From a virus (Duplodnaviria > Caudoviricetes): 64,000 nt of DNA. The stretch lies in the IMG/VR virus record IMGVR_UViG_3300027804_000001, positions 224,001-288,000 of that record; one strand, 5' to 3'. Under the pieces are notes generated by a model. The model had not been told where the DNA came from. It saw nothing but the letters and a program-made list of their open reading frames with translations, and searched no databases. A program made the position numbers and the translations under genes. The stretch's first letter is position 1; the number at the start of each line of letters is the position of its first letter. Positions 1-46,768 of this stretch are shown piece by piece.

Positions 1-148
1 TCCACTCATCTTTGTCGATTTCTTCGAACCAAACAGTTAATGCATCTAAAGAATTTGCAATTTTTTCTAATGCCTTTGTTTTTCTTTGTTCAAGAATCAG
101 TAATTCTTCTTCAAATTGTTTGTTTGGTTTTTTTGTTGAGTCTGTCAT
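1..148 (-). CDS. hypothetical protein, truncated by left window edge
   Basis: Manual translation MTDSTKKPNKQFEEELLILEQRKTKALEKIANSLDALTVWFEEIDKDEW is open to base 1; ATG overlaps the upstream TGA (ATGA). Confidence 0.75.
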   Translation of the reverse strand, partial: MTDSTKKPNKQFEEELLILEQRKTKALEKIANSLDALTVWFEEIDKDEW

Positions 149-996
149 ATTGATTTTATTTTATTTATTAATTTATTCCAGTTAGAATACTCTTTATAAT
201 CACCTAATATACAATTTTTTTCGAACATAAACAAGAAATTATCGAGATTAATTTTGAATCTACTTTTTCTTAATGAATTGTACATTATTCTATACTCATC
301 AGAGAACGAATAATCTTGATTATTATCTGCAACGGACTTAATTCTTTCTATGGAAGTTGAATCCCACTTAAAATGATGTACTTGAACCTGAAAATTTGGG
401 TTTATGAGTGGGTGTGACCATCCTTGCCATCTCCATGTTGTTTGTCCTTCTATTTTGGCATAGTGTTGTCCGGAAGTAATTTCAATATACCCCTTTACAA
501 TACATATTTTATTAGGATTTGCTTGACTTAACGGGTATCTGAAAAACCCCGCGTTTGGATATTGTTCAAAAATTAATTGATTTTCTTTTAACTCCACAAA
601 TTCACCATCAGGTCCTATTCTATCAATAAAACCACCCCTAACAATTTCATATCCTTTATCATTACAGTCGTCTATGATACCAATTAAGTCATTATTAGGG
701 TATAAATGGAATTCGTCGATATCGGCAATTACCCACCAATCGTTTGGATGTTTTGATTTTATAAAATTATATAGTTGTGTTACTTTCTCCCAATCAAAAA
801 TCCTGTCTTTTATTGTTCTAACAATAGAAACATTATCGTAATCTTTAATTTGTTCCTCAACTTTTGATTTTAAATCTGGTGAGATTTGAGATTCATAAAC
901 AATTATGTTAATCTCATCAACATATTGTTTATAATGTTGTACGAAATGAGGAATTAAGTTGTGTCCGTGACCTATAACAGTTACTAATCTAATCAT
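145..996 (-). CDS. glycosyltransferase, GT-A fold (GT2-like)
   Basis: 283 aa; HFVQHY near the N-terminus and WWVIADIDEF DxD motif; coupled to neighbours. Confidence 0.75.
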   Translation of the reverse strand: MIRLVTVIGHGHNLIPHFVQHYKQYVDEINIIVYESQISPDLKSKVEEQIKDYDNVSIVRTIKDRIFDWEKVTQLYNFIKSKHPNDWWVIADIDEFHLYPNNDLIGIIDDCNDKGYEIVRGGFIDRIGPDGEFVELKENQLIFEQYPNAGFFRYPLSQANPNKICIVKGYIEITSGQHYAKIEGQTTWRWQGWSHPLINPNFQVQVHHFKWDSTSIERIKSVADNNQDYSFSDEYRIMYNSLRKSRFKINLDNFLFMFEKNCILGDYKEYSNWNKLINKIKSI

Positions 997-1733
997 TTTC
1001 TTCTATTAACCACCGTAATACCGCTTGATGACGGCTTTGTGTTTAATATACGAAAATTAAATAAATTAATCAAATTCCACTCAGTATTTTCTTGTAATTC
1101 TTTGATGAATTTTGATGGTCCGTCAAATCTATCGTGAGTTTCTTTTGTATCTTCCGAAATAATAAATGTCTCCTCATAATCATCATCTGTATCGTGTATA
1201 ATGATTATACCATTATCAGATAATAATTTGGAATATAATTCAAAATCTTTTTTAACTCCTTCATATGAATGGTCACCATCAATAAAAAGAACATCTATTT
1301 TAATATTTTGTCTAACAAAGAAATTATAATATGCTTCTTCGGATGTAGATTTAATAAATCGTGGATGGAAATGTTTTCTAAAAAAAGATTTTTTATCATC
1401 TAAATCATTTGGACCTCCAACACCATTACATGCATCAACCAAATATGTTGCACCTATCTCACCCCAATTTAAATCGGGGTTTCCTTCAAATATACTTTGA
1501 GTATGTAAATCCATTCTCGCTTGTGACATTATTCTTGGAATATAACCACCACCCGATCCAATACATACACAAACTTTTGCTCTCATATGTTGAATGATTG
1601 AGTAGACTATAAGTCCATCTCCCATATGTTCTTTAGTTGCTCCGTGTGTCCACAAATAAGGAACCAATACACCATCATTTGATGTTATGTTATTTTCAAT
1701 GTAATCCTGATTTAATAAGTTTTTATTATTCAT
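993..1733 (-). CDS. class I SAM-dependent methyltransferase (Methyltransf_24-like)
   Basis: CIGSGGG motif I and IDVLFIDGDHSYEGVKKDF...GIIIIHDT; start trimmed to ATG at 1733. Confidence 0.85.
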   Translation of the reverse strand: MNNKNLLNQDYIENNITSNDGVLVPYLWTHGATKEHMGDGLIVYSIIQHMRAKVCVCIGSGGGYIPRIMSQARMDLHTQSIFEGNPDLNWGEIGATYLVDACNGVGGPNDLDDKKSFFRKHFHPRFIKSTSEEAYYNFFVRQNIKIDVLFIDGDHSYEGVKKDFELYSKLLSDNGIIIIHDTDDDYEETFIISEDTKETHDRFDGPSKFIKELQENTEWNLINLFNFRILNTKPSSSGITVVNRRK

Positions 1734-2436
1734 AAACAATTAAGTCTTTTATTATTTCGTAAAGTTCTTCATCTTTTTGTAACGGTGTATTTGAAAAAAT
1801 CGAACTCATAGTCATTGTTATTCCTTCACCTGCACCAACTATATCTTTATTTTCTAAAACATCACAGTATTCTTTTATTATCTGTAATTTTTCATAATGT
1901 TTATAGAATTCTTTATAATCATGTTTTTTAAAAACTAAAAAATGTTCCCATATTGTTTCTTTATCCATAAAATCACTGATTTTAGAATTAACATATGCAA
2001 AATACATTTTCCAATCATTTTTAAAAATCAAGTTCATTTCACTTATAGTAAATTTATTAATTCTATGTTTGGATAAATTTTCGATATATGTTATACCATC
2101 TTTAAAATTATAGTTCTTTAGTTTTTTTAAAACTTTAAAGTCGGCATCATATTTCATATCCGCATCTATCACTATTGCAATATCCATATCCAATAATATT
2201 TCTTTTACTAAAAGTATTTTGTCATGATATGATTTTATTTCTTTTTTATAATCAATTACATTAAGTAGAAATGGTGAATATTTTGGATAAAAAAATTCAG
2301 GGTTATCAGTCAAGACATAACACTTATATCCCAACTCCATCAAATTATTTAATTTTCTAACTGTTCCTTTGAAATATTTTTCATCCCCAAAACAAAGAAT
2401 ACCAAATCCTATTTTATTTGTTTGTTCCATAAGCAT
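1726..2436 (-). CDS. putative nucleotide-sugar transferase-like protein
   Basis: 236 aa; YVLTDNP strand and IAIVIDADM DxD motif; lies inside the GT cluster. Confidence 0.5.
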   Translation of the reverse strand: MLMEQTNKIGFGILCFGDEKYFKGTVRKLNNLMELGYKCYVLTDNPEFFYPKYSPFLLNVIDYKKEIKSYHDKILLVKEILLDMDIAIVIDADMKYDADFKVLKKLKNYNFKDGITYIENLSKHRINKFTISEMNLIFKNDWKMYFAYVNSKISDFMDKETIWEHFLVFKKHDYKEFYKHYEKLQIIKEYCDVLENKDIVGAGEGITMTMSSIFSNTPLQKDEELYEIIKDLIVYE

Positions 2437-3058
2437 ATAGACCTAAATGTTTTATTTCCACACTTAATAGTGTATCTATATATACCTTGTGTCCTACATC
2501 TCTTAATTTTTTTAAAACATTAAAATCCTCACCTAACCAATCATTTGATTGTTCATTATATATAAACTCAAAATATGGTTTTTGTACTTGATTAAAAATT
2601 TCCGTTTTCATTAATAAACAACCCATCCCAACACCTTCAACTTCTATTAATTCCTCTTCGACTTTTAATGATAGAAAACTGTCCCAATCGCCCACATTCT
2701 TATATGCTACAGGTTTAATAGGATTGGTTCTTTTTAAGTAATTACATCCCACAATATCTTTATTGTGTTCTAAAAGTCTTAAAGCTGTTGTGGATGGAAA
2801 AACCATATCACTATCCAACCATAAAACATAATCTGAATTTATATTTTTTGCCTCCTCTATTAACTTTTCTCTCTGATTTAATAAAATAGTACTCGAGTCA
2901 AAAAATAAATAAGTATCAATTACCTCACTGGTTGTTTTATATAATTGAGTTAAACTATATGCAAAATGTGTATGAACGGATTCTCTTGTTGGAACTAAAA
3001 TTGATAGTTTTTTATTGTTTCCACTCCACAATGACCCGTTATATAAATTCTTTCTCAT
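2414..3058 (-). CDS. glycosyltransferase family 2-like protein
   Basis: ILVPTR start strand, YVLWLDSDMVFP DxD, VGMGCLLMK and GEDF motifs. Confidence 0.75.
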   Translation of the reverse strand: MRKNLYNGSLWSGNNKKLSILVPTRESVHTHFAYSLTQLYKTTSEVIDTYLFFDSSTILLNQREKLIEEAKNINSDYVLWLDSDMVFPSTTALRLLEHNKDIVGCNYLKRTNPIKPVAYKNVGDWDSFLSLKVEEELIEVEGVGMGCLLMKTEIFNQVQKPYFEFIYNEQSNDWLGEDFNVLKKLRDVGHKVYIDTLLSVEIKHLGLYAYGTNK

Positions 3059-3501
3059 AATCCTGGTGTGTTATTTGAAAAACTATCTTCTTGGTTTGAC
3101 ATGTTTTTAGCCAATTTGATTAATTCTTGAATTCTTTTTGAAAATAGTTGGTAGTCTTTTATTGGTAATTGACTTATTAATGAATAAGTTTCTTTAGTAA
3201 ATGTATTTGTGGTTACAATTTCAATCGCACCGATTCTTGCCCATTTCTCAATTAAAGAAATTCTTGAAATATTTTCATTGTTCTCTAAAATACCTCGTAA
3301 CCTTTCTTGATTTAGATTATTTAAAATCTCAACCAAAATTTCTCTTTCTTCTCTTGCATTTTTGGAAAAAAACGAAAGAAATTTAAGTCTTTTGATTCTT
3401 TTAATTAATCTGATTAGTTTTTCCCTATCATGATCAACTCCTGACCATATTATATAGGTTAATTCGTATTTAGATGGAAATGATTTATAACTCAAATTCA
3501 T
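3055..3501 (-). CDS. hypothetical protein
   Basis: 148 aa ORF with ATG start and 4-nt overlap with the downstream gene. Confidence 0.7.
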   Translation of the reverse strand: MNLSYKSFPSKYELTYIIWSGVDHDREKLIRLIKRIKRLKFLSFFSKNAREEREILVEILNNLNQERLRGILENNENISRISLIEKWARIGAIEIVTTNTFTKETYSLISQLPIKDYQLFSKRIQELIKLAKNMSNQEDSFSNNTPGL

Positions 3502-3540
3502 TGAGTTAATATACGAAAAAAAATTGAATTTGTGAATAAA

Positions 3541-3771
3541 TTAGATATAATCGTTAGGTGTGGTCAATCCTCCGAAATCTGATGATTCTATTGTTTGAGA
3601 TCCTGATGCAATACTAGCGATTACGGTAGTGGCCCTATTACGACCCACCCCTAAACTTGAATTTAATCCAAGATTTGTATTTGCGGCGTTTCCTGATCCC
3701 GTAATCAGTCCTAATGCTGCCGCGACTTTTCCAATACTTATTTCCGAACCGGTTGCTGGTACTAAACCCAT
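3541..3771 (-). CDS. small Gly/Ser/Ala-rich putative virion protein
   Basis: 76 aa; N-terminus P-x-x-G-x-x-IS resembles small phage fibre accessory proteins; TATTTATA motif upstream. Confidence 0.6.
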   Translation of the reverse strand: MGLVPATGSEISIGKVAAALGLITGSGNAANTNLGLNSSLGVGRNRATTVIASIASGSQTIESSDFGGLTTPNDYI

Positions 3772-3790
3772 TATCTAAAACTAGTTTTTA

Positions 3791-3798
3791 TATAAATA
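3791..3798 (-). promoter_or_regulatory. putative late promoter TATTTATA
   Basis: 19 nt upstream of ATG 3771. Confidence 0.55.
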
Positions 3799-3850
3799 CT
3801 TATAATTTTGATTTATTCTTATGTTATTAATATATGTTTTTTATTTAACA

Positions 3851-4609
3851 CTATAAACCAAATCTTTTTTTTGTGTTATTATAATTTTGTAAAACTTGAG
3901 TTGAGGTTAAAGCTGTGGAATGTACCATAAGTTGAGCCAATGTACCGTTAAAAACCGAACCATAACTATCCGTACCCACCCCATAACTATCAGAATTACA
4001 CGGTCCCCACATTGTACATATAGCACAAACGGGTCCAGTTGTGTTTGTTATTGTTTTAGTTGCATCAAGTGAACCATTTATATACATTTTCATTGAGGTG
4101 GTTGATTCTTTAACCCACACTAAATTTTTCCAACCTCCTGTATTCACCAATGTTGTTCCTAAATATGTTTGCCACGCACCGTCATAATTCCAATATTCCA
4201 TATATCCATTAACAAGTGTATATGCAATGTTTACCGGACCACCACTACAGTGAGATAAGATACCAACCCTTCCTGTAGTGGTAAATTTACACCATATAGA
4301 TACAGTACAAGTATTTCCCAAATTAAAAGAAGAAAATTTACCCCAGTCATTAGTACCATCGAATACAAATTCGTTATTTTTTCGATTTTTATTATGTGTT
4401 GGGGGGCCGGAAGTAGTTGTAGAATATGTACCACCACCAGAATTATATAAGGTTACGTCTCTTCCGTTTCCACTTAAATCTTTCCATGTTGACCCCGACC
4501 CTGAATATGAGAAACCTCTATCGGAGTCTAAAAATAATTCAATATTTGTTAATACTAAATTATTTAAGTTTTTAATTGAATCAGATTTATTATATGGTCC
4601 TACGTACAT
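3851..4609 (-). CDS. LamG/concanavalin A-like lectin domain virion protein
   Basis: LFLD...SYSGSGSTWKDLSGNG, FVFDGTNDW, MYING, ALTSTQVLQNYN. Confidence 0.8.
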   Translation of the reverse strand: MYVGPYNKSDSIKNLNNLVLTNIELFLDSDRGFSYSGSGSTWKDLSGNGRDVTLYNSGGGTYSTTTSGPPTHNKNRKNNEFVFDGTNDWGKFSSFNLGNTCTVSIWCKFTTTGRVGILSHCSGGPVNIAYTLVNGYMEYWNYDGAWQTYLGTTLVNTGGWKNLVWVKESTTSMKMYINGSLDATKTITNTTGPVCAICTMWGPCNSDSYGVGTDSYGSVFNGTLAQLMVHSTALTSTQVLQNYNNTKKRFGL

Positions 4610-4611
4610 GT

Positions 4612-4643
4612 TTTATAAATTAAATCTTTTTTTTGTTGCATTA
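4612..4643. repeat. 32-bp exact direct repeat, copy 1
   Basis: TTTATAAATTAAATCTTTTTTTTGTTGCATTA; identical copy at 5307-5338. Confidence 0.9.
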
Positions 4644-5305
4644 TAATTATTCAAAATTTCGGCGTCTGTCAATGACCTATTATACACTCTAAAAACATAT
4701 AATTTTCCCGACCAACCACTGGCAATTGTTGCTGCGGTTGTTAAATTCCATGTTGATGTTGCAGTTGAGTTTGCACCTGAGCTGACCTGTTCCACCGTAT
4801 TTTTAAACATTTGTCTATATGGTGTGGTATTTGTCCTTACCCTATAAGAAAAATGTCTAATCCCCGCAGTTAAATCAGAATCATTTGCATATTGTATTCT
4901 TTGGGTTACGTTACAACAACCATTAACGTCAAAATAAGTGTTACCATTACTATAGTATAAATGACTAAAAATTGCTCTTGTATCTGAACCAAGACTTGAG
5001 GTTGCTCTCCAATCAAAAAATGTATTCGTTGTTGCAGACGTTGTTTGAACATATGCTTCAATATAACATTCACTTGTAGATGAAAAACCGAACGTGTTAG
5101 AGGCGGGTCCTGTAAAAACACCACCACTACAATCAAAATAACCCGCAGAGTTCCAAGAAATATTTGCACCAAAACTGTAATTCCTATTACCAGTACTTAA
5201 ATCATACCATGTACTCCCTGAACCTGGATATGATCTATTTACACCCGCATCTAAATGTAAAACTAAACCATTTGTTACTATATTAGGTCCACCGTATGCT
5301 CCCAT
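4613..5305 (-). CDS. LamG-like lectin domain virion protein (paralog 2)
   Basis: NGLVLHLDAG...SYPGSGSTWYDLS and VYNRSLTDAEILNNYN termini shared with neighbours. Confidence 0.8.
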   Translation of the reverse strand: MGAYGGPNIVTNGLVLHLDAGVNRSYPGSGSTWYDLSTGNRNYSFGANISWNSAGYFDCSGGVFTGPASNTFGFSSTSECYIEAYVQTTSATTNTFFDWRATSSLGSDTRAIFSHLYYSNGNTYFDVNGCCNVTQRIQYANDSDLTAGIRHFSYRVRTNTTPYRQMFKNTVEQVSSGANSTATSTWNLTTAATIASGWSGKLYVFRVYNRSLTDAEILNNYNATKKRFNL

Positions 5306-5306
5306 G

Positions 5307-5338
5307 TTTATAAATTAAATCTTTTTTTTGTTGCATTA
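5307..5338. repeat. 32-bp exact direct repeat, copy 2
   Basis: Identical to 4612-4643; encodes the last codons of a LamG gene. Confidence 0.9.
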
Positions 5339-6009
5339 AAAATTTCACCTACTTGTGTTGATGTTAATGCTCTGTTATACATTAAAACTTTCCCAACTTT
5401 ACCATTTACATAGTACGCATTGATTCCAATATCACCACCGATAGACAAAGCACCTGTGTTATAATAATTTCCACCAGATGGTGTTGTGGTTGCAGTCTCA
5501 TCATAATTGTTTCTTATAATTGTTTGTGTATTATCCGTTCTATTTAAAATTGCAGTAAACATTGCCCACGTATTAAAAGTGTAACCGATAAAACCTGTAT
5601 CTGTTCTACTACTTGCATCGTTACCTATCATAAATCTAACACCACTTGGATTGTTAGCACCAATATAATAACCATTAGAACCACCCGACCTTTTTGCAAT
5701 CCATAAATCCCAACCATCTCCAGCAATTGAAGGGTCTGAATTTACCCAACATATTATTGTAAACGACCCACTATTTGGATTTATAGTTGAACTATTTGTA
5801 ATTGAAATATAATCATCTACACCATCAAATGAAAAAACACCACCATTAGAATTATTAAAGGTTGCACCGTTTGTTAATGTCCCGTTATTACCATTTTTAG
5901 ATATATCATAAACATTATTTCCACTACCGATATAGGATCTATATGACCCAGCATCAATAGATAATACTAATCCGTTTCTTGTAAAATTAGGCCCTCTAAA
6001 AATTCCCAT
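5308..6009 (-). CDS. LamG-like lectin domain virion protein (paralog 3)
   Basis: NGLVLSIDAG, FSFDGVDDYI, MYNRALTSTQV. Confidence 0.85.
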   Translation of the reverse strand: MGIFRGPNFTRNGLVLSIDAGSYRSYIGSGNNVYDISKNGNNGTLTNGATFNNSNGGVFSFDGVDDYISITNSSTINPNSGSFTIICWVNSDPSIAGDGWDLWIAKRSGGSNGYYIGANNPSGVRFMIGNDASSRTDTGFIGYTFNTWAMFTAILNRTDNTQTIIRNNYDETATTTPSGGNYYNTGALSIGGDIGINAYYVNGKVGKVLMYNRALTSTQVGEIFNATKKRFNL

Positions 6010-7958
6010 TATTTAATTTTTTGCTCTAACGCCTCGATACGTTTTAATAACTCTTTATTTGTTTCAATTAGTAACGCAACTAATTTTTCATATTTAACAG
6101 CTTTAAATCCATTATTTCTTGTTGTTACAATTTCGGGTAAAACTTTCTCTATTTCTTGAGCAACAACACCAATATCGTGTCCTTCATTTTCATGTATTCC
6201 TTTCATTGGTACCCAATCAAATTCATAACCACTTATTTCGTTTAATTTATCCAATGAACCTTTAATTGGTCTTATATTTGTTTTTAATCTTTCATCAGAA
6301 CCATAATATGCAATTACATCATTTGTGGCTCTTATTAAACCAACAGTTGTTGGTGTTTCGGTTCCAACTCCAAGTGCACCCGAAACATATAGATTTCCGT
6401 CGACATCAACTCTCGCAGATGCGCTTACAGATAAAATTGGTGCACCTGAAATATCACCAACACTAAAAACTGTTCCAAGTAAATCGTCTGTAACCGAAAA
6501 TAATTGACCTTGTGAACCTTGTATATCTACAACAACTGAACCCGATTTATAAATTTCTAATGAACCTGAAATAGACATTACTGTTCCTGTAAATCTTGCA
6601 TTTGATTCAACTGTTACATTTGGTGATGTACTGTTTAATGTTAATAAACCATCATTAAGTGTTCCTGATAATGTTACCGTACCACTACTACCCGATGAAC
6701 CACTACTACCGCTTGAACCCGATGTTCCTGAACTTCCACTACTTCCTGATGTACCACTACTACCAGAACTTCCTGAGGATCCACTTAAACCTGAAGAACC
6801 CGAAGAACCTGATGTTCCACTACTTCCTGATGTACCAGAAGTTCCTGAAGAACCCGATGTACCTGAAGTACCCGAACTACCTGAAGATCCCGAAGAACCT
6901 GAGGTTCCACTAGTTCCTGAAGTACCAGAACTTCCACTAGTTCCACTACTACCACTTGAACCTGAACTACCTGATGATCCACTTGTACCTGAAGTACCCG
7001 AAGAACCATTACTACCACTACTACCACTTGTACCAGAAGAACCTGAGCTTCCTGATGTTCCACTACTTCCACTTGTACCTGAAGTACCACTAGAACCTGA
7101 TGTTCCACTTGTACCATTTATACCTGACGTACCACTTGAACCACTACTACCGTTACTTCCTGATGTTCCACTTGTTCCTGAACTTCCACTAGTACCTGAA
7201 GTACCTCTAGTTCCTGAACTACCAGATGTTCCTGAGGAACCACTTGAACCTGATGTACCGCTAGAACCTGATGTACCAGAACTTCCGCTTGAGCCAGAAG
7301 AACCAGATGTTCCTGAAGAACCTGAAGTACCAGAACTTCCTGATGTTCCGCTGGTACCAGATGAACCATTACTACCACTTGTTCCACTTGTACCAGATGA
7401 ACCATTACTACCACTTGTACCAGATGAACCATTACTACCACTTGTACCAGATGTTCCTGAACTTCCAGAAGAACCTGATGTTCCCGAACTACCACTACTT
7501 CCACTTGTACCTGAAGTACCACTAGTTCCTGAAGTACCTCTAGTTCCTGAACTACCAGATGTTCCTGATGAACCTGAACTACCAGATGTTCCTGATGAAC
7601 CAGAACTTCCTGAAGAACCTGATGTTCCCGATGTTCCACTACTACCACTAGTACCTGAACTTCCAGAAGAACCTGATGTACCACTAGTACCTGAAGTACC
7701 CGATGTCGCAGCCGCAAAAGTGGTACCATTTAACACTAAACTACCAGTAACTCTTAATGAACCTGTGAAATCATGACTATCATCACTTGAATTACCAAAC
7801 TTTGTTGAACCACTGCTAAATGATGCGGTTTGATATATTACCGAAGATGAAATTATGTATTGTTGTGCGACGAGATTACCCTGTATATTTAAATCTCCTG
7901 AGATGTCCGCCGAGCCTGATACAATCAGACCATTTTTGACTTTAAATTCGTTTGCCAT
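6009..7958 (-). CDS. tail fibre with Gly-Ser/Thr-Ser repeat stalk and C-terminal intramolecular chaperone (peptidase S74-like)
   Basis: 649 aa; long GTS/GSS tract; C-terminal SDERLKTNI...GYEFDW...GVVAQE...VKYEKLVALLIE plus coiled coil. Confidence 0.85.
   Translation of the reverse strand: MANEFKVKNGLIVSGSADISGDLNIQGNLVAQQYIISSSVIYQTASFSSGSTKFGNSSDDSHDFTGSLRVTGSLVLNGTTFAAATSGTSGTSGTSGSSGSSGTSGSSGTSGTSGSSGSSGSSGTSGSSGSSGTSGSSGTRGTSGTSGTSGTSGSSGSSGTSGSSGSSGTSGTSGSNGSSGTSGSNGSSGTSGTSGSNGSSGTSGTSGSSGTSGSSGTSGSSGSSGSSGTSGSSGTSGSSGSSGTSGSSGTRGTSGTSGSSGTSGTSGSNGSSGSSGTSGINGTSGTSGSSGTSGTSGSSGTSGSSGSSGTSGSSGSNGSSGTSGTSGSSGSSGSSGSSGTSGSSGTSGTSGTSGSSGSSGSSGTSGTSGSSGTSGTSGSSGTSGSSGSSGLSGSSGSSGSSGTSGSSGSSGTSGSSGSSGSSGSSGTVTLSGTLNDGLLTLNSTSPNVTVESNARFTGTVMSISGSLEIYKSGSVVVDIQGSQGQLFSVTDDLLGTVFSVGDISGAPILSVSASARVDVDGNLYVSGALGVGTETPTTVGLIRATNDVIAYYGSDERLKTNIRPIKGSLDKLNEISGYEFDWVPMKGIHENEGHDIGVVAQEIEKVLPEIVTTRNNGFKAVKYEKLVALLIETNKELLKRIEALEQKIK
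6680..7705 (-). repeat. Gly-X-Y (GTS/GSS) coding repeat, 9-bp degenerate units
   Basis: Roughly 110 consecutive triplets in the 649 aa ORF; boundaries approximate. Confidence 0.9.
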
Positions 7959-8005
7959 TTATTCAAATTAGTTTCATTATCCACTAATGGTGTTTATGTG
8001 TTTAC

Positions 8006-8013
8006 TATAAATA
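8006..8013 (-). promoter_or_regulatory. putative late promoter TATTTATA
   Basis: Between terminator and ATG 7958. Confidence 0.6.
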
Positions 8014-8034
8014 CTAAATCAAAGATTATAAAAT

Positions 8035-8062
8035 AAAAAAGGGGAGAATAAATCTCCCCTTT
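8035..8062 (-). terminator. intrinsic terminator
   Basis: AAAGGGGAGA-TTTAT-TCTCCCCTTT plus T tract, just after the 1694 aa gene. Confidence 0.85.
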
Positions 8063-8081
8063 CATCTAATTTATTTTTATC

Positions 8082-11000
8082 TTATATTGACAACGCTCTT
8101 GCGAACATAACTACACTCCATGTTCCTGATGATGATGTTGCCGTAACCGTTCCACTATTGGAAATTGTAAACGATATTGCTGATGTGTTACCTAAGTCAG
8201 TAGTTGTGGTTTCTGTTAATTTAGATGTTGAACCATCCCATATACCTACAATACTACCTGCTCTCATATTAGAACCATTTTTCACTAAGTAATCAAGAAC
8301 TACACCATTGTAACTTGATAATGTAAACATTGTTGATGATGTACTTACAGATTGATTACTTGTTTGAACATCTACTTTACCATTCATCAAGATATCACCT
8401 GTTAATGATAATGTTGATCCACTAAATGTTAAATTGGTTTCAACCGTTGCATTTGTTCCACTACCATCATATGTTATAACACCATTGTTTGTTGAACCTG
8501 TTAATGTTACAAGTCCTGATGTACCTGATGTACCTGCTGTACCACTTGAACCGCTTGTTCCTGAAGAACCACTTGAACCGCTTGAACCTGAAGTACCAGA
8601 TGTTCCACTTGTACCAGATGAACCCGAAGTACCTGATGTTCCAGAACTTCCTGATGTTCCACTACTTCCTGAAGAACCACTTGTACCAGCAGTTCCTGAT
8701 GAACCTGAACTTCCTGATGTTCCACTACTTCCACTAGTACCTGAACTACCCGATGTTCCTGATGTTCCAGAACTTCCTGAAGAACCAGATGAACCTGATG
8801 AACCTGAGCTACCTGATGAACCAGAAGTTCCCGAAGTACCTGATGAACCAGAAGAACCTGAACTACCACTTGTTCCTGAACTACCAGAAGAACCTGAGCT
8901 TCCTGATGTTCCACTACTTCCACTTGTTCCTGAACTACCACTTGTACCGGCTGTTCCTGAAGAACCACTTGTACCAGCCGTTCCTGAACTACCTGAAGTA
9001 CCTGAGGTTCCACTTGTTCCTGATGAACCAGATGAACCCGATGTACCAGAACTTCCTGATGAACCAGATGTACCCGATGAACCACTTGTACCAGCGGTTC
9101 CTGATGAACCACTTGAACCAGATGTACCCGAAGTACCTGATGAACCACCACCACCTTCACCGAGTGTAACCGCAACTAAACCTGCTTGTGGTGATGAAAA
9201 TCCTATTTCAATATTATATAAGTCAATCGCTTCAATTGTCTGTGGTATAATTGAAAAACCATTTGTATCATAAACTTGTACAACAGGATATTTTGCACCT
9301 AAATCGTGTTGGAATGACCATGTTGTTGAAGGTGAGTTAACGGTTAATGAATTATATGCTCCCACAGTTGTACTACCTGAGCTACCGCTTGTTCCTGAAG
9401 AACCCGATGTACCAGATGTACCTGCAGTACCACTACTTCCTGAAGAACCACTAGAACCTGAAGTTCCACTTGTTCCACTACTTCCTGAACTACCACTAGA
9501 ACCTGAAGTACCTGATGTACCTGAGGTACCACTACTTCCCGAACTACCACTAGAACCTGATGTTCCTGAGGACCCTGAAGTACCAGATGTTCCACTTGTT
9601 CCTGAAGAACCAGATGAACCTGATGTACCACTAGAACCTGATGTACCACTTGAACCAGATGTACCCGAAGTACCTGATGTTCCACTTGTACCATCTGCAC
9701 CTGTAGCACCATCTAAGTTAATTGACCAAGATGAATACGTACCACTACCGATTGTTCCATTTGCATCAGGTGCAGAGAATGTTAATGTTGTACCACTATA
9801 ACTTACTACGTCTGATTCTTGATAATTGTTTACATTATAAGCAATGATGATTGATTGTCCAACTGAGTAACTTAATCCCGTAGGAACTGTAACTGAACCA
9901 CCTTGTCCTAATGTATGTGTTGAATTCGATGTTGTTTTATAAACTTCTGAAGTACCTGAAGTACCTGATGTACCAGCTGTTCCTGAAGAACCACTTGTAC
10001 CCGAAGAACCCGAAGAACCTGATGTTCCAGAAGTTCCTGAACTTCCTGATGAACCACTAGAACCTGATGTTCCTGATGTACCAGATGAACCAGAACTTCC
10101 TGAACTACCACTTGTACCTGAAGTACCCGCAGTTCCAGAACTTCCTGATGAACCACTAGAACCCGAAGTACCACTACTTCCACTTGTTCCTGAACTTCCA
10201 GATGAACCCGAACTTCCACTCGTTCCTGAAGAACCAGATGTACCACTTGTACCGGCAGTTCCACTACTTCCTGAAGAACCTGAACTTCCGCTTGTTCCTG
10301 AAGAACCGGATGTACCTGAACTTCCTGAAGAACCACTAGAACCTGATGTTCCACTTGTTCCACTACTTCCTGAACTACCACTAGAACCACTTGTACCGGC
10401 TGTTCCTGAAGAACCACTTGTACCAGATGTTCCACTACTTCCCGATGTTCCCGCAGTTCCTGAACTACCTGAAGTTCCAGATGTACCAGAAGAACCTGAT
10501 GAACCCGATGTACCCGCAGTTCCAGAACTTCCTGAAGAACCACTAGAACCTGATGTACCAGATGTTCCTGATGAACCACTTGTTCCTGAAGATCCACTTG
10601 AACCTGATGTACCAGATGTACCCGCAGTTCCACTACTACCACTACTTCCACTTGAACCTGAAGTACCAGATGTTCCTGATGAACCACTAGAACCACTTGA
10701 ACCTGAAGTACCACTTGTACCAGATGTACCTGAAGTACCATCAGCACCCGTAGCACCATCTAAGTTAATAACCCAATTAGAATATGTACCGCTACCAATT
10801 GTACCGTTAGCATCTGGAGTATCAACTGTTATTGTTGTTCCACTATATGAAACCACATGAGACTCTTGATAATTGTTGACATCATACGCTATGATAATAG
10901 ACTGACCAACAGTGTAACTTAATCCACTTGGTACAGTAAATGACCCCGAATTACCTAATGTATGTGTGGTTGTTGATATTGTTTTATAAACTTCCGAAGT

Positions 11001-13166
11001 ACCTGATGTACCCGATGTACCCGCAGTTCCACTACTTCCTGATGAACCCGAAGAACCTGATGTACCTGATGTTCCACTTGTACCAGCGGTTCCTGATGAA
11101 CCACTAGAACCTGAAGTACCTGACGTACCACTACTTCCTGATGAACCACTAGAACCCGAAGTACCAGAAGAACCTGACGTACCTGATGAACCAGAACTTC
11201 CTGAAGAACCACTTGTACCAGATGTACCACTTGTTCCTGAAGAACCCGAACTTCCTGAAGAACCAGATGTTCCACTTGTACCAGATGAGCCATCACTACC
11301 ACTAGTTCCTGAAGTACCAGATGTACCAGATGAACCTGAGGTACCAGATGTTCCTGATGAACCACTAGAACCTGATGTTCCTGAAGTACCTGAACTTCCT
11401 GAAGTACCAGATGAACCACTAGAACCTGAAGTTCCACTTGTTCCACTACTTCCTGAACTACCACTAGAACCACTTGTTCCTGAGGTACCAGATGAACCCG
11501 AGGTACCAGATGAACCTGATGTACCTGAACTTCCAGATGTTCCACTTGTACCACTTGAACCACTTGAACCCGAACTTCCGCTTGTACCAGATGTTCCGCT
11601 TGAACCCGAGGTACCGGACGAACCAGAACTTCCTGAAGAACCACTTGTACCAGATGTACCAGCCGTTCCCGAACTTCCTGAAGATCCACTAGAACCTGAT
11701 GTTCCTGAAGTTCCAGAACTTCCAGATGTACCTGAAGAACCATCTGCACCTGTTGCACCATCTAAATTGATAGTCCATGATGAATATGTACCACTACCAA
11801 TAGTACCATTAGAATCTGGTGCTGTAAACGTTAAAGTAGTACCACTATATGATACTACATCCGATTCTTGGTAGTTATTTACGTTATATGCTATTATAAT
11901 TGATTGACCAACGGTATAACTTAAACCACTCGGTACAGTTAATGAACCCGCTTGTCCTAAAGTAAATGTATCTGTTGATGTTGTTTTATAGACCTCTGAG
12001 GTACCTGATGAACCACTTGTACCAGCTGTTCCTGATGAACCACTCGTTCCCGAACTTCCTGAACTACCACTAGAACCCGATGTACCTGAAGTACCAGATG
12101 TTCCACTTGTTCCTGAACTTCCTGAACTACCACTAGAACCTGAAGTACCTGAAGTACCTGAAGTACCACTACTTCCACTTGTTCCTGCTGTTCCCGAACT
12201 TCCTGATGAACCACTAGAACCTGATGTTCCTGATGTTCCACTTGTACCACTTGAACCATCACTACCACTGGTTCCCGAACTTCCTGATGAACCACTAGAA
12301 CCTGATGTTCCTGATGTACCACTAGAACCTGATGTTCCTGAACTACCAGATGTACCCGCAGTACCACTTGTTCCTGAAGAACCGGATGTACCTGAACTTC
12401 CTGAAGATCCACTAGAACCAGAAGAACCTGATGTTCCTGAAGTACCGGCAGTACCTGAACTTCCTGAAGATCCACTTGTACCTGATGTACCAGAACTACC
12501 GCTTGTACCTGAAGTGCCTGAACTTCCTGATGTACCACTAGAACCTGAGGTACCAGCTGTTCCTGATGAACCACTAGAACCTGATGTTCCTGATGAACCA
12601 TTACTTCCCGAAGAACCACTTGAACCAGAACTACCACTTGTACCTGAAGTACCTGAGCTTCCCGATGTACCAGATGAACCTGATGTTCCTGACGTACCCG
12701 AAGTTCCAGATGAACCACTAGTACCACTAGAACCACTTGAACCCGAAGTACCTGAACTTCCTGAAGAACCAGATGTACCTGATGATCCACTTGTTCCTGA
12801 TGTACCACTAGAACCTGATGTTCCTGAAGTACCCGATGTTGCAGCCGTATATTCAGTACCATTTATTGATAACGAACCTGTAACTGAAAAAGAACCAGTA
12901 AATTGATGTGTATCGTCTAAACTATCACCAAATTTTGTGGAACCAGAAGAAAATGACGTTGTAATATAACTTACAGAAGATGAGACTATAAATTGATTGG
13001 CGGACAAATTACCACCAACAACTAAATCACCACTAATATTTTGACTACCTGAAACATTTAATGAACCTGTTACACTTAACGATCCAGATATTTGTGAGGA
13101 GCCTGTTATATTTGCTCCACCCTGGTCAACAATTAGACCATTTTTTACTATAAATTGATTTGCCAT
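8082..13166 (-). CDS. giant fibre protein with five Gly-Ser/Thr-Ser tracts separated by globular modules
   Basis: 1694 aa; three copies of an EVYKT...W.INLDG module and one WSFQHDLG..YP module; N-terminus homologous to the 649 aa fibre. Confidence 0.8.
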   Translation of the reverse strand: MANQFIVKNGLIVDQGGANITGSSQISGSLSVTGSLNVSGSQNISGDLVVGGNLSANQFIVSSSVSYITTSFSSGSTKFGDSLDDTHQFTGSFSVTGSLSINGTEYTAATSGTSGTSGSSGTSGTSGSSGTSGSSGSSGTSGSSGSSGTSGSSGTSGTSGTSGSSGTSGSSGTSGTSGSSGSSGSSGSNGSSGTSGSSGSSGTAGTSGSSGTSGSSGTSGTSGSSGTSGTSGSSGSSGTAGTSGTSGSSGSSGSSGSSGTSGSSGTSGTAGTSGSSGTSGSSGTSGTSGSSGSSGSSGTSGSDGSSGTSGTSGTSGSSGSSGSSGTAGTSGSSGTSGTSGTSGSSGSSGSSGTSGTSGTSGTSGSSGSSGSSGTSGSSGTAGTSGSSGTSEVYKTTSTDTFTLGQAGSLTVPSGLSYTVGQSIIIAYNVNNYQESDVVSYSGTTLTFTAPDSNGTIGSGTYSSWTINLDGATGADGSSGTSGSSGTSGTSGSSGSSGSSGTAGTSGTSGSSGSSGSSGTSGSSGTSGTSGSSGSSGSSGTSGTSGSSGTSGSSGTSGSSGTSGTSGSSGSSGSSGTSGTSGSSGSSGTSGSSGTSGTSGSSGSSGTSGTSGSSGTSGTSGTSGSDGSSGTSGTSGSSGSSGSSGTSGTSGTSGSSGSSGSSGTSGSSGTSGSSGSSGSSGTSGTSGSSGSSGTAGTSGTSGTSGSSGSSGSSGTAGTSGTSGTSEVYKTISTTTHTLGNSGSFTVPSGLSYTVGQSIIIAYDVNNYQESHVVSYSGTTITVDTPDANGTIGSGTYSNWVINLDGATGADGTSGTSGTSGTSGSSGSSGSSGTSGTSGSSGSSGSSGTAGTSGTSGSSGSSGTSGSSGTSGTSGSSGSSGSSGTAGTSGSSGSSGTSGTSGSSGTAGTSGSSGTSGTSGSSGTAGTSGSSGSSGSSGTSGTSGSSGSSGSSGTSGSSGTSGSSGSSGSSGTAGTSGTSGSSGTSGSSGSSGSSGTSGSSGTSGSSGSSGSSGTAGTSGTSGSSGSSGSSGTSGTSGSSGSSGSSGTSGTSGSSGSSGTSGSSGTAGTSGTSGTSEVYKTTSNSTHTLGQGGSVTVPTGLSYSVGQSIIIAYNVNNYQESDVVSYSGTTLTFSAPDANGTIGSGTYSSWSINLDGATGADGTSGTSGTSGTSGSSGTSGSSGTSGSSGSSGTSGTSGTSGSSGTSGSSGSSGSSGTSGTSGTSGSSGSSGSSGTSGTSGSSGSSGSSGTAGTSGTSGSSGTSGSSGSTTVGAYNSLTVNSPSTTWSFQHDLGAKYPVVQVYDTNGFSIIPQTIEAIDLYNIEIGFSSPQAGLVAVTLGEGGGGSSGTSGTSGSSGSSGTAGTSGSSGTSGSSGSSGTSGSSGSSGTSGTSGTSGSSGTAGTSGSSGTAGTSGSSGTSGSSGTSGSSGSSGSSGTSGSSGSSGSSGTSGTSGSSGSSGSSGSSGSSGSSGTSGTSGSSGTSGSSGTSGSSGSSGTAGTSGSSGSSGTSGSSGTSGTSGSSGTSGTSGTSGSSGSSGSSGTSGSSGTAGTSGTSGLVTLTGSTNNGVITYDGSGTNATVETNLTFSGSTLSLTGDILMNGKVDVQTSNQSVSTSSTMFTLSSYNGVVLDYLVKNGSNMRAGSIVGIWDGSTSKLTETTTTDLGNTSAISFTISNSGTVTATSSSGTWSVVMFARALSI
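8515..12835 (-). repeat. interrupted Gly-X-Y (GTS/GSS/GTA) coding repeat region
   Basis: Tracts at about 11997-12833, 10990-11757, 9950-10755, 9370-9715 and 8515-9140. Confidence 0.9.
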
Positions 13167-13200
13167 TTCTTCTTCTTTGTTTTTATTACACTAAGTCTTT

Positions 13201-13208
13201 TATAAATA
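13201..13208 (-). promoter_or_regulatory. putative late promoter TATTTATA
   Basis: Upstream of ATG 13166. Confidence 0.6.
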
Positions 13209-13253
13209 TTTCATTATTCGATTAGTTTATTACTTTTGATAAAAAACTTTTTA

Positions 13254-15482
13254 TTATAAAAATGTCGTCATTGACTTGAATGTCCAATTCGCACTTGCGT
13301 TTACTTTCAATTCAACATGACCTTCATTTGAAACCGTTACATCAAAAGATGCATCACTTGTATCTCCAATATCTGCCGTTGTTGTTTCATTAAAATTTAC
13401 ACTATTATTATTCCACACCGCAACAACTATACCCGCTCTCGCATTTGAATTATCATAAATTGTATAATTGTAAAACGCTGACGTGTATGAACCCGTTAAT
13501 GTTGACACTACAGTATTAGAACCTGGTGAAACATTTGACAATGAATTTTTTAGTTGTGCGTTGGTAACATCAATACTACCTGTAACAATTAATGATCCTG
13601 ATATGGTTGTATCATTACCTATTGTTACTATAGTTCCTGTATCAACAATAGATGAGTTTGTAACACCTGTTGCCGATTCAAATTTGACAACAGTATTTAC
13701 ATTACCATTAATTGAAACTGATGTTCCACTTGTTCCTGAAGTACCCCCACTTCCACTAGTTCCAGATGTTCCACTAGAACCTGATGTACCCGAAGTTCCA
13801 GATGATCCACTACTACCGCTAGTACCACTTGTGCCTGATGTTCCTGAAGTTCCTGCTGAACCTGAAGTACCACTACTACCACTTGTGCCCGATGTTCCTG
13901 AAGTACCGGCTGAACCCGATGTTCCACTACTACCGCTAGTACCCGAAGAACCAGAACTTCCACTTGTTCCCGAAGTACCAGAACTTCCACTTGTTCCCGA
14001 AGTACCGGCTGAACCTGATGTTCCACTACTACCAGATGAACCACTACTACCACTTGTACCAGCAGTGCCACTACTACCACTTGTACCGGCAGTACCACTA
14101 CTACCACTAGTACCTGATGAACCACCACCACCTTCACCGAGTGTTGCAACTACAATACCCGCAATTGGTTGTGAAAATGTAATTGTTGCATTGTATAAAT
14201 CAACCGCTAAAATCTCTTGAGGTATAACTTGGTAACCATATTCATCAAATACTTGAAATACGGGATATCTTGCACCTAAATCATGATTAAAATACCACAC
14301 GTCTGACGGTGTTGTAACCGTCATTGATTCATAAGCACCTACTGTTGTACTACCTGAAGAACCCGAACTACCTGATGTTCCACTAGTTCCTGAAGTACCA
14401 CTACTTCCTGAACTACCTGAAGTACCTGAGGTTCCACTAGTTCCCGATGTACCACTAGTACCGGCAGTACCACTACTACCACTTGTACCCGAAGTACCGG
14501 ATGAACCATTACCACCAATCGTTGCAATTACTGTACCTGCTGTTGGTAATGCAAAATAAACATCTAAATTATTTGCATCTAATACTTTAATTTCAGTTGG
14601 GATGATGACCCTATCACTGTTATCAAAAACATTAATTGCTGGATATTTGTAATCTAAATTGTGATTAAAAGACCATGTTGTTTGTTGTGAACTCACAACA
14701 AGTGTTCTTGTCATACCCGAAACAGGGTATGCAGAATCAACATAATTTACTAAAGAGGCCGATAATGCCGATACATTGAATGTTACTTCTTTAATGTAAC
14801 CGTTATCATTTGTATCAACCATTGATGTGGTGATTTCTAAACCACCTTCACCGATAAATTCAACAACATCTGAACCTGTTGCTCTAACTAAATCCTGACC
14901 TTCAACAAATATATCTCTAAAGTGTGAACCAATAGAAACAAATGCGGTACCATCAAAAGATTCACTAACATTTAATCCCGTACTATCGTCAAATTGTAAT
15001 TTGGTAAATTGTTTATCATATGTATTACCATCAACATCAGAACCTGAAATATGAAATGGTACATTTGTTAAACCTAAACCACTACCTGTAAATTCTGTTG
15101 CAGTAATTGAACCTGTTACAGATAAATTTACATTAACTTGTAAACCATCTTCATCAATAGATGCGGTCGCATTACCACTTGCAATTTGAGATAAGTTTAA
15201 TCCTGTGATACCACTTGCCGGAATATTATAAAGACCTTGTCCATCACCTATGAATGAACCCGTAAAAAATGATGCTGTTACATTATCTGTTAGATAAATT
15301 GAACCTGTATTAACCGTGTTTGTTGCAACTAATTCTTGTATTGAAGGACCTAACGCACCTGAAACCGCAAAAAATACTTTACCGTCAGTAGTATTAATTG
15401 ATAATTCCCCTAGTTGTAGATTAGCGTTGGTCGGTTTCCTACCCGATACAGCGCTCCTACGTAGCTTTACTATTTGTGCCAT
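13254..15482 (-). CDS. tail fibre protein with tropism-determinant-like N-terminus and Gly-Ser/Thr-Ser tracts
   Basis: 742 aa; MAQIVKLRRS...P....LQLGELSINTTDGKVF head-attachment-type N-terminus; two W.FNH.L..YP modules. Confidence 0.75.
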   Translation of the reverse strand: MAQIVKLRRSAVSGRKPTNANLQLGELSINTTDGKVFFAVSGALGPSIQELVATNTVNTGSIYLTDNVTASFFTGSFIGDGQGLYNIPASGITGLNLSQIASGNATASIDEDGLQVNVNLSVTGSITATEFTGSGLGLTNVPFHISGSDVDGNTYDKQFTKLQFDDSTGLNVSESFDGTAFVSIGSHFRDIFVEGQDLVRATGSDVVEFIGEGGLEITTSMVDTNDNGYIKEVTFNVSALSASLVNYVDSAYPVSGMTRTLVVSSQQTTWSFNHNLDYKYPAINVFDNSDRVIIPTEIKVLDANNLDVYFALPTAGTVIATIGGNGSSGTSGTSGSSGTAGTSGTSGTSGTSGTSGSSGSSGTSGTSGTSGSSGSSGSTTVGAYESMTVTTPSDVWYFNHDLGARYPVFQVFDEYGYQVIPQEILAVDLYNATITFSQPIAGIVVATLGEGGGGSSGTSGSSGTAGTSGSSGTAGTSGSSGSSGSSGTSGSAGTSGTSGSSGTSGTSGSSGSSGTSGSSGTSGSAGTSGTSGTSGSSGTSGSAGTSGTSGTSGTSGSSGSSGTSGTSGSSGTSGTSGSGGTSGTSGTSVSINGNVNTVVKFESATGVTNSSIVDTGTIVTIGNDTTISGSLIVTGSIDVTNAQLKNSLSNVSPGSNTVVSTLTGSYTSAFYNYTIYDNSNARAGIVVAVWNNNSVNFNETTTADIGDTSDASFDVTVSNEGHVELKVNASANWTFKSMTTFL

Positions 15483-15578: not shown

Positions 15579-15605
15579 AAAAAAAGGGAGAGTTTTTACT
15601 CTCCC
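15579..15605 (-). terminator. intrinsic terminator
   Basis: GGGAGAGT-AAAA-ACTCTCCC followed by T7. Confidence 0.85.
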
Positions 15606-15633
15606 CCTTATTTAATTTATAAATGTTATAATT

Positions 15634-20806: not shown

Positions 20807-21331
20807 TTATATTTTTTCTATTTGACGCAAAGTTAATTCAACCGGAGTTACTCTACCAAAAATTTTCACTTCTAATGAAACTTTTTCACCGTTTATACTT
20901 GAAATAATTCCTTCAAACGTAGTGAATGGACCATCATTGATTCTAATTGATTCACCAATTGTATATTGATACTTCATGGTTGTGTTATACTCATCTAAAA
21001 TTTCATCTTTTAGAATACGTTTTATATCTGTATCTTTTAACTTAATTGGTGTTCTATCTCCCATCATTCCCATCAAACCATTCATACCTGATACGAATTT
21101 TAAATCTTCTTTGGTCAATAATTTTTCCGATTCAAAATAAAGATATCCAGTATAAAGGACCTTTTCTCTTACGATTTTTTTATTCTTTACAATTTTTAAT
21201 TCCTTTTCGGTTGGACACAGGAACCTATTAATACCTTTTAACTTTCCTTGTGTTATTTGTTTGTTGTATTCTTCTTTTAATGTTCTTTCTTTACCGGGTA
21301 AAACTTTTACCACGTACCAATGTGATTCCAT
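20807..21331 (-). CDS. nusG: transcription termination/antitermination factor NusG
   Basis: WYVVKV..GKE NGN domain, YTGYLYF, KOW domain GESIRINDGPF..FEG...VKIFGRVTPVEL. Confidence 0.95.
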   Translation of the reverse strand: MESHWYVVKVLPGKERTLKEEYNKQITQGKLKGINRFLCPTEKELKIVKNKKIVREKVLYTGYLYFESEKLLTKEDLKFVSGMNGLMGMMGDRTPIKLKDTDIKRILKDEILDEYNTTMKYQYTIGESIRINDGPFTTFEGIISSINGEKVSLEVKIFGRVTPVELTLRQIEKI

Positions 21332-21357
21332 AATCTTGATTTTTTAATAAATACGAA

Positions 21358-45145: not shown

Positions 45146-45149
45146 ATTC

Positions 45150-45157
45150 TATAAATA
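45150..45157 (-). promoter_or_regulatory. putative late promoter TATTTATA
   Basis: 4 nt upstream of ATG 45145. Confidence 0.6.
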
Positions 45158-45175
45158 TTAATTCTTTTATTTTTA

Positions 45176-46078: not shown

Positions 46079-46083
46079 ACCTA

Positions 46084-46091
46084 TATAAATA
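46084..46091 (-). promoter_or_regulatory. putative late promoter TATTTATA
   Basis: Between terminator and ATG 46078. Confidence 0.6.
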
Positions 46092-46111
46092 CCAATAATA
46101 AAAATTTAAAT

Positions 46112-46136
46112 AAAAAACCCCTTTAAATAAAGGGGT
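46112..46136 (-). terminator. intrinsic terminator
   Basis: ACCCCTTT-ATTT-AAAGGGGT followed by T tract. Confidence 0.8.
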
Positions 46137-46164
46137 CTTTTAATAATTAAAAAATCTTTATTTG

Positions 46165-46704: not shown

Positions 46705-46727
46705 TGTTTTTTATTTTTATCTTTTTA

Positions 46728-46735: not shown

Positions 46736-46768
46736 TATCATTATTCAAAACAAATCTGTAGTTTATTT

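Follow-up and report, generated by a model that had tools for sequence, protein, structure and literature searches.

The DNA considered here is a 64,000-nucleotide stretch from a virus of the Caudoviricetes (positions 224,001 to 288,000 of IMG/VR record IMGVR_UViG_3300027804_000001; hereafter the window), near whose start three genes for collagen-like tail fibres lie ahead of a block of four genes (145-3058) for three putative glycosyltransferases and a methyltransferase. An earlier note on this DNA had read the arrangement as a phage-encoded system that covers the fibres with methyl-capped O-glycans. We give slightly better than even chances to the reading that a fibre-linked glycosylation system has its upstream end here, the phage being a low-GC freshwater one of very large size (~300 kb or more). 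A sugar coat on the fibres is probable because an enzyme of a protein-sugar-attaching family, the TibC/Aah-type protein O-heptosyltransferases (BAHT), adjoins such fibres in many related phages; O-glycosylation of the fibres is likely, and BAHT is the probable enzyme for it. That the four genes at 145-3058 act on those same collagen-like fibres is put forward more tentatively, with chances a little under even. The earlier idea of a virion glycosylated by phage enzymes thus holds insofar as a BAHT gene recurs beside Gly-Ser/Thr fibres, whereas the four genes on which it was founded are linked to the repeats by position only and the methyl cap is a conjecture.

The flank past the start of the window was walked by exact protein look-ups, which found these genes again on JGI contigs and on an ENA contig of 150 kb. 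About 46 kb past the window start, at the end of an island of sugar-related genes, lies P0004 (705 residues, L009:10660-12777), followed 68 bp downstream by P0003, the gene for a 1035-residue fibre whose repeats are again Gly-(S/T)-S and whose C-terminus resembles Peptidase_S74. In the bacterial pairs tibC-tibA and aah-aidA the enzyme gene is directly ahead of the large open reading frame (ORF) of its substrate, and BAHT enzymes transfer heptosyl residues from ADP-heptose and form dodecameric rings. Residues 365-701 of P0004 match TibC (PDB 4RAP; E 3e-54 over 337 residues), and the protein scores 283.4 bits against TIGR04414 (hepto_Aah_TibC), for which the curated equivalog cut-off is 200. Its N-terminal 364 residues are modelled as a GT-A domain and a beta-sandwich (pLDDT 82), and P0004 is accordingly annotated by us as a predicted bifunctional fusion of a GT-A domain with a BAHT enzyme. 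Mapping of the positions given in the TibC structure paper (PMC4358343), with conservation followed over 78 viral sequences, places the catalytic Asp110 of TibC at Asp435 (Asp in 78/78), Thr226, Lys230 and Trp305 at Thr549 (Thr or Ser in 77/78), Lys553 (78/78) and Trp624 (78/78), and the iron-finger residues Cys339, Cys342, Cys358 and Cys370 at Cys659, Cys662, Cys676 and Cys688 (kept in 77/78). The last 340 residues therefore share with TibC/TibA and Aah/AIDA-I the catalytic Asp, three of four sugar-binding residues and the four-cysteine iron finger, although bacterial BAHT homologues are at most 40% identical to P0004 and the phage protein differs by its fused N-terminal part and by a hydrophobic residue at the position of Arg286. 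A large same-strand ORF stands just downstream of the enzyme gene in 26 of 50 bacterial BAHT loci, and this order is the enzyme-then-substrate order expected of the family. The phage shares it, having the enzyme gene immediately upstream of a gene for a long, Ser-rich repetitive protein; the adjacency is kept, but the neighbour is a collagen-like Gly-(S/T)-S tail fibre and not an autotransporter passenger with its beta-helix.

Is this pairing a peculiarity of one genome? A scan of viral contigs for BAHT relatives gave 78 loci, and in 35 of the 66 with at least 1.5 kb of flank an S/T collagen-like ORF follows within 3 kb on the same strand. Upstream of BAHT such a gene was found at one of 71 viral loci, and as a control it occurs anywhere within 10 kb of the primase gene in three of 50 loci from related phages. 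In the BAHT tree the pairing with collagen falls into two well-supported clades, between which lie BAHT lineages without it. The gap between the BAHT gene and the start of the fibre is 43-71 bp in clade A; in clade B a single small gene lies between them, and the BAHT domain belongs to a fusion protein 1016-1294 residues long. At the level of whole records, 30 related IMG/VR records carrying the 1726-2436 family were compared, which are fragments and mutually related, so that the figures are indicative: BAHT is present in seven of ten records with collagen-like genes and in none of the 20 without (Fisher 6e-5; ~3e-3 after crude dereplication). The record of L106 (G011, 269 kb) and G030 are exceptions to the pairing: each contains a 1044-residue collagen-like gene, yet no BAHT match reached the threshold, a single candidate having been discarded after scoring.

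The presumed acceptors are collagen-like. Proline and hydroxyproline in the X and Y positions stabilise the collagen helix. The repeats of the three fibres in the window have Gly at each third residue in uninterrupted runs of up to 342 residues, X being Thr or Ser and Y almost always Ser; the listed X and Y residues are nearly all Ser or Thr and include no proline. Ser and Thr make up 61-63% of the repeat residues, which bears out the earlier description of stalks that are about two-thirds Ser/Thr, except that these are Gly-X-Y collagen triplets and not generic Ser/Thr tracts. All three proteins match Pfam Collagen (E from 3e-23 to 1e-149) and PHROG tail-fibre families. In the 742-residue fibre the collagen-like tracts span residues 323-379 and 451-588. 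The 1694-residue fibre has five tracts totalling 1134 residues with repeated globular modules between them (Pfam Collagen in 18 stretches), and its length recurs exactly on contig L001, a second assembly with the same genes, and in the related phage L090. The 649-residue fibre has an uninterrupted 342-residue Gly-(S/T)-S tract and a C-terminal Peptidase_S74 chaperone domain, and the C-terminus of P0003 is very similar, so that a trimerisation module flanks the repeats as in other collagen-like proteins while imino acids at X and Y are absent. The triplet repeats also give rise to long ORFs in alternative frames or on the opposite strand (7118-7729, 8434-9273, 9908-12862 and others), some of which resemble multi-pass membrane proteins in a hydropathy scan; they were rejected as genes, being by-products of the repeat.

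Several observations weigh against this reading, some touching BAHT and others the four genes. Three collagen-positive records have no BAHT, two of them with near-identical sequence and one only 24% complete. The BAHT relatives of L072, L074 and L213 stand beside collagen-like proteins with charged or Pro-containing triplets, and the pairing may therefore be with collagen-like fibres generally, with acceptor sites that may fall outside the triplets. The link between BAHT and the fibres is one of co-occurrence, and what supports it is homology and gene neighbourhood among related, non-independent genomes. TibC Arg286 is not kept in P0004, where it corresponds to Ile605, and the residue is Ile, Val or Leu in all 32 clade-A sequences (P0004 and L012-L042); the activity or the donor may differ, as the R286A mutant of TibC loses activity (PMC4358343). 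Clade B, which is also linked to collagen, has Arg at this position, as do most of the remaining viral BAHTs. A GmhA-type SIS isomerase for heptose synthesis was not found in a 97%-complete relative, nor did a search of this near-complete genome for the ADP-heptose pathway (SIS isomerase, cytidylyl/adenylyltransferase-like proteins) find anything. The loss of Arg286 together with the missing isomerase suggests a donor other than ADP-heptose or one supplied by the host, and the change at residue 605 in clade A may reflect an altered donor sugar. As for the genes in the window, the block 1726-2436/methyltransferase/145-996 is kept in the 20 related records without a collagen-like gene, one of which is 311 kb long and 93% complete, and the glycosyltransferase gene at 2414-3058 also occurs in relatives without collagen and without BAHT. 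The earlier expectation that the four-gene cluster would co-occur with Ser/Thr-repeat fibres across relatives fails on these 20 records, and co-variation of the glycosyltransferase block with the collagen repeats was rejected; BAHT does co-occur with them. The block is not specific to the repeats, and its tie to them is positional only. As a separate observation, BAHT genes directly upstream of charged (GEKGDK) or Pro-containing collagen-like proteins were seen at L213:1005-3975, in L072 and L074, and in L235, a metagenome-assembled genome of the Lentisphaeria.

The features of the window are collected in Table 1.

Table 1. Genes and terminator-like hairpins of the fibre and glycosyltransferase region, and the second group of stalk proteins, by position in the window
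Feature	Position	Strand	Basis or remark
775-residue fibre-module protein, opens the fibre group	15634-17961	-	no Pfam or PHROG match
Terminator-like hairpin between the 775-residue gene and the first collagen fibre gene	15582-15609	-	12-bp stem and T-run
742-residue tail fibre with two Gly-(T/S)-S tracts	13254-15482	-	Pfam Collagen, E 2.6e-23; PHROG tail fibre
1694-residue fibre	8082-13166	-	Pfam Collagen, E 1.3e-149
Terminator-like hairpin after the 1694-residue fibre gene	8037-8063	-	11-bp stem and T-run
649-residue fibre	6009-7958	-	Pfam Collagen, E 1e-49; Peptidase_S74, E 4e-17
LamG/ConA-like gene 1 of a tandem trio	5308-6009	-	Laminin_G_3, E 1.5e-12
LamG/ConA-like gene 2 of the trio	4613-5305	-	Laminin_G_3, E 0.053
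LamG/ConA-like gene 3 of the trio	3851-4609	-	Laminin_G_3, E 4e-13
76-residue ORF	3541-3771	-	gene call in two other assemblies (L001 7226-7456, L002 4680-4910)
148-residue protein	3055-3501	-	accompanies the 2414-3058 glycosyltransferase
Predicted GT-A glycosyltransferase, 214 residues, Anp1/Mnn9-like	2414-3058	-	Pfam Anp1; DSD motif
Predicted GT-A fold enzyme, 236 residues, virus-only family	1726-2436	-	D91-x-D93; model and Foldseek
Class I S-adenosylmethionine (SAM) methyltransferase, 248 residues	993-1739	-	Methyltransf_24
Predicted GT2/GT92-like GT-A glycosyltransferase, 283 residues	145-996	-	Glyco_tranf_2_4; DID motif
84-residue ORF, leaves the window	1-148	-	L001 10849-11103; followed there by two GT7 genes and a radical SAM gene
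Four proteins with (T-P-T-x-T-I)n Thr-Pro stalks	43856-56923	-	composition scan

All ORFs in the first 18 kb of the window are minus-strand ones, so that the fibre genes are read before the enzymes. Within the four-gene block consecutive genes overlap by 23, 14 and 4 nt in the order of reading, and the 2414-3058 gene in turn overlaps the 148-residue gene upstream of it by 4 nt (ATGA); together with the profile and fold matches these overlaps confirm that three GT-A-type genes and a Methyltransf_24 gene are coupled at 145-3058. The statement that the block lies directly downstream of the fibres needs amending: it is co-directional with them, and no terminator-like hairpin was found on the minus strand from 8037 to the window start at position 1, but five small genes intervene, namely the three LamG genes, the 76-residue ORF and the 148-residue ORF. 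The LamG genes (3851-6009) also match phrog_8510, a virion structural protein, the 76-residue ORF has a counterpart of 77 residues in L090, and the 148-residue protein, for which Pfam and PHROG searches returned no significant family match, is possibly a fibre assembly factor. Residues ~534-696 of the 775-residue protein are 40-47% identical to a globular module found within collagen-like fibre ORFs of relatives. DNA searches of the phage collection found no relative; the one match was to the collagen repeat, in a megaphage record of 735 kb. An exact 43-mer had no match in viral_contigs.

How firmly can the four enzymes be assigned? The products of 2414-3058, 1726-2436 and 145-996 are, by profile or fold match together with a DxD motif, predicted to be GT-A glycosyltransferases. 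For 2414-3058 the Pfam Anp1 score is 30.3 bits (cut-off 28.8), with a match to phrog_1574 (E 1e-20) and weak matches to Mnn9 (E 0.0011) and to protein A197 of STIV (E 0.09). The 145-996 protein scores 29.4 bits against Glyco_tranf_2_4 (cut-off 27.5), and its nearest Atlas clusters bear the names GT2-like and GT92. The 1726-2436 protein gave no match in the Pfam search; its homologues number 153, and the Atlas clusters closest to it are viral. Its AlphaFold model (pLDDT 90), for which the earlier note had asked for a structural comparison, was matched by Foldseek at E ~3e-7 to retaining GT-A enzymes (UGGT, the ABO transferases and LARGE1; GT24/GT6/LARGE1), and Asp91 and Asp93 are invariant among 33 homologues. 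The methyltransferase scores 52 bits against Methyltransf_24 (cut-off 26.3; E 1.4e-13), a generic family. The sequence gives no assignment to glycan O-methylation of the kind the earlier note had drawn on, the RMNT_CmcI score of 13.8 bits being below the cut-off of 23.2, and methylation of a sugar by this enzyme, the 'methyl cap', is purely conjectural. Its PHROG label 'DNA methyltransferase' depends on a 42-residue stretch of the SAM-binding core. Informative solved homologues were found neither for the methyltransferase nor for two of the glycosyltransferases.

The four genes open an island of ~47 kb of co-directional genes for soluble sugar-nucleotide enzymes and transferases that extends past the window start to P0004. 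Two tandem GT7 (beta-1,4-galactosyltransferase-type) genes, from 107 nt to ~3 kb past the window start (L003:2847-5692), come early in it; the first has a LamG domain inserted after its Glyco_transf_7C segment, and both are kept in ~40 related viral loci. Further on are radical SAM enzymes, three DegT aminotransferases, five epimerase/dehydratase-type enzymes, a UDP-glucose dehydrogenase, a dTDP-sugar isomerase, a split thiamine-pyrophosphate E1 pair, a NodU-like carbamoyltransferase, a fusion of GT4 with an FkbM methyltransferase and a second Methyltransf_24 protein. None of the 71 island ORFs is a polytopic membrane protein in a hydropathy scan, more than one segment being seen only in alternative frames of the collagen repeats, and these ORFs include no Wzx, Wzy, WaaL or other ligase, initiating phosphoglycosyl transferase, flippase or ABC permease. 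The polytopic flippase, polymerase and ligase that mark a surface polysaccharide locus dependent on undecaprenyl phosphate are thus absent, which fits a cytoplasmic acceptor. One segment of the island (L006:12382-18472) encodes the NodU-like carbamoyltransferase, an adenylylsulfate (APS)-kinase-like P-loop protein, three 2-oxoglutarate (2OG)-Fe(II) oxygenases and a Trp-halogenase-like flavoprotein, a set more reminiscent of natural-product tailoring than of simple glycan synthesis. Past P0003 the genes are convergent, on the opposite strand; there, after this fourth fibre gene, L009:15965-20660 (minus strand) contains three more GT2 genes, an epimerase/dehydratase and a third Methyltransf_24 gene, so that the sugar-related region reaches past the pair of BAHT and fibre.

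The arrangement of the four genes is not due to chance since it recurs. In L090, whose 1726-2436 homologue is 70% identical, the gene order is that of the window without the LamG genes, and the block 1726-2436/methyltransferase/145-996/GT7/GT7/radical SAM is syntenic in ~40 of 46 viral loci, usually with fibre and LamG genes before it. The genes found most often right next to the glycosyltransferase block are LamG genes, which precede it in most relatives; in relatives without collagen the fibres upstream of the block are non-collagen and moderately S/T-rich, again with LamG genes. Ten viral loci have the order BAHT, collagen fibre, homologue of the 148-residue protein (46-53% identity), homologue of the 2414-3058 glycosyltransferase, and among the four genes this is the only one that stands right after BAHT-linked collagen fibres.

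Taken together these data allow a sequence of events to be proposed. Like TibC acting on TibA, the BAHT domain of P0004 would, in the cytoplasm, attach the first sugar to the hydroxyls of Ser and Thr in the fibre repeats. The fused GT-A domain and other transferases, including those at 145-3058, would then extend and tailor the glycan with sugars made by enzymes of the island, and the methyltransferase would methylate a sugar of the fibre glycan. The glycans could stabilise or solubilise the imino-acid-free triple helix, shield the fibre or serve adhesion. It could further be imagined, though we consider it doubtful, that glycosylation is structurally required, the Pro-free Gly/Ser/Thr triple helix folding or staying stable only after dense O-glycosylation by a BAHT enzyme that was retargeted from autotransporter beta-helices and whose donor pocket (Arg286 to Ile, Val or Leu) was retuned to an island-made sugar. 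If so, the fibre would be a phage counterpart of the Thr-galactosylated collagen of Riftia and a new way to build long virion fibres.

Alternatively, the virion may be glycosylated while the genes of the six-gene block act on LamG tip proteins, on non-collagen fibre domains or on the Thr-Pro stalks, with only the BAHT branch serving the Gly-Ser/Thr-Ser stalks. The presence of the block in the 20 of 30 records without a collagen-like gene, after non-collagen fibres and LamG genes, is what such a division of labour would leave behind, as are the LamG genes next to the block and the LamG domains inserted in or fused to downstream enzymes (GT7); the block may adjoin the fibres through gene order inherited within a single phage family, and some virion protein, not the collagen repeats, may be the acceptor of the four enzymes. 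We nevertheless think this division unlikely, as in the window the block is co-directional with the collagen fibres without a terminator-like site after 8037, the 2414-3058 glycosyltransferase follows BAHT-linked collagen fibres in ten relatives, and nothing points to one specific alternative acceptor. The Thr-Pro stalks themselves, which the earlier note had also pointed out, are real in four proteins of the window, one of them 2661 residues long, and are broken up by Cys-containing modules; they give the phage another type of low-complexity virion stalk, unrelated to the first. A separate 232-residue GT2-family glycosyltransferase (37545-38243, minus strand; Pfam Glycos_transf_2 34.1 bits, cut-off 23.3) lies ~6 kb from the first Thr-Pro stalk gene and has replication genes as neighbours (primase, SbcC-like, metallophosphoesterase).

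Large sugar clusters of phages are classically read as means to remodel glycans of the host surface, for which serotype conversion is cited in PMC12619734, and the island could likewise alter lipopolysaccharide, capsule, S-layer or exopolysaccharide for superinfection exclusion or release. Adjacency to the fibres would then be inherited order, and all relatives indeed belong to one syntenic family. Such remodelling is improbable given that none of the 71 island ORFs is polytopic and the flippase, polymerase, ligase, initiating phosphoglycosyl transferase and ABC permease are missing, and given that BAHTs are protein O-glycosyltransferases (PMC4358343) and BAHT tracks the collagen-like fibres. 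Phage glycosyltransferases acting on DNA are well known (PMC9614988; PMC12619734), relatives carry a gene of the thymidylate-synthase family that in principle could be a hydroxymethylase, and the best PHROG family of the 993-1739 protein is labelled as a DNA enzyme; it is nonetheless highly improbable that the transferases hypermodify phage DNA by glycosylating hydroxymethyl-pyrimidines and that the methyltransferase is a DNA or nucleotide enzyme, because the PHROG match covers so little of the protein, the score of the ThyA-family gene (320 bits) is that of an ordinary thymidylate synthase, the cluster is placed among fibre genes and not in the replication region, and BAHT has no known activity on DNA. 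A NusG homologue (NGN and weak KOW) and a D12-class N6-adenine DNA methyltransferase are encoded at 20807-22194, upstream of the long run of co-directional fibre and glycan genes. The radical SAM enzymes, DegT aminotransferases, NodU-like carbamoyltransferase, 2OG oxygenases and halogenase-like flavoprotein resemble sets for natural-product tailoring and would suit an island that makes a free glycosylated small molecule (aminoglycoside- or nucleoside-like) or rewires host sugar-nucleotide pools. This too is very improbable, seeing that no scaffold synthase or exporter was seen among the island genes, that fibre genes bracket the island in this genome and in G005, and that BAHT and the many glycosyltransferases point to a macromolecular acceptor. 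Fibre-linked glycosylation is therefore the reading that we retain.

Microbial Gly-X-Y fibres with glycans are exemplified by BclA of the Bacillus anthracis exosporium, whose repeats contain proline (GPT) and whose transferases are not BAHT, whereas the phage repeats are Pro-free and dominated by Ser. BclA's collagen-like region bears O-linked oligosaccharides that end in methylated anthrose (PMC6222408; PMC9614988, ref. 237), a precedent for methyl-sugar-capped O-glycans on such a region. Mimivirus has its own sugar-nucleotide pathways and glycosyltransferases for its fibrils, and its collagen-like proteins are modified by the bifunctional L230 (PMC9614988); L230 acts on hydroxylysine, however, while the phage repeats lack Lys and Pro, and the phage has a bacterial host, unrelated enzymes and a single island in a genome of ~300 kb or more. 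In mycobacteriophages, enzymes of the phage glycosylate the virion (Freeman et al. 2023, as cited in PMC12619734). According to that citing paper, phage glycosyltransferases encoded near structural genes are proposed to put O-glycans on virion proteins there, the glycans being on the C-termini of capsid and tail-tube subunits and few glycosyltransferases sufficing; the present phage has collagen-like fibres as candidate acceptors, BAHT as candidate initiator and ~47 kb of sugar genes. Similar by description are the 'moraphages', metagenomic freshwater phages of 200-307 kb with predicted Bacteroidota hosts and four conserved core groups of glycosyltransferases, the role of which was left open (PMC12619734, 2025); that paper mentions neither collagen-like fibres nor a heptosyltransferase. 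Full-text literature searches found no paper linking TibC-type enzymes to phages or to collagen-like fibres.

Virion glycosylation and BAHT enzymes are themselves known, and what appears to be new, on the genomic evidence, is a variant of virion glycosylation in which the BAHT family has a new class of substrate. Autonomous glycan 'factories' are seen as characteristic of giant eukaryotic viruses, and to our knowledge virion glycosylation by phage enzymes has been shown for only a few mycobacteriophages and the BAHT family is known only from bacterial adhesins. The loci found here, 78 viral ones with BAHT and 46 with the glycosyltransferase block, indicate a widespread group of aquatic phages in which this protein O-glycosyltransferase family of adhesins is paired with collagen-like tail fibres, accompanied in the largest members by ~47 kb of sugar-synthesis genes. 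If the proposal is true, it would add a new substrate class for BAHT enzymes, would explain the existence of Pro-free Gly-Ser-Thr triple helices and would bear on host recognition, particle stability and the immune or protease shielding of phages.

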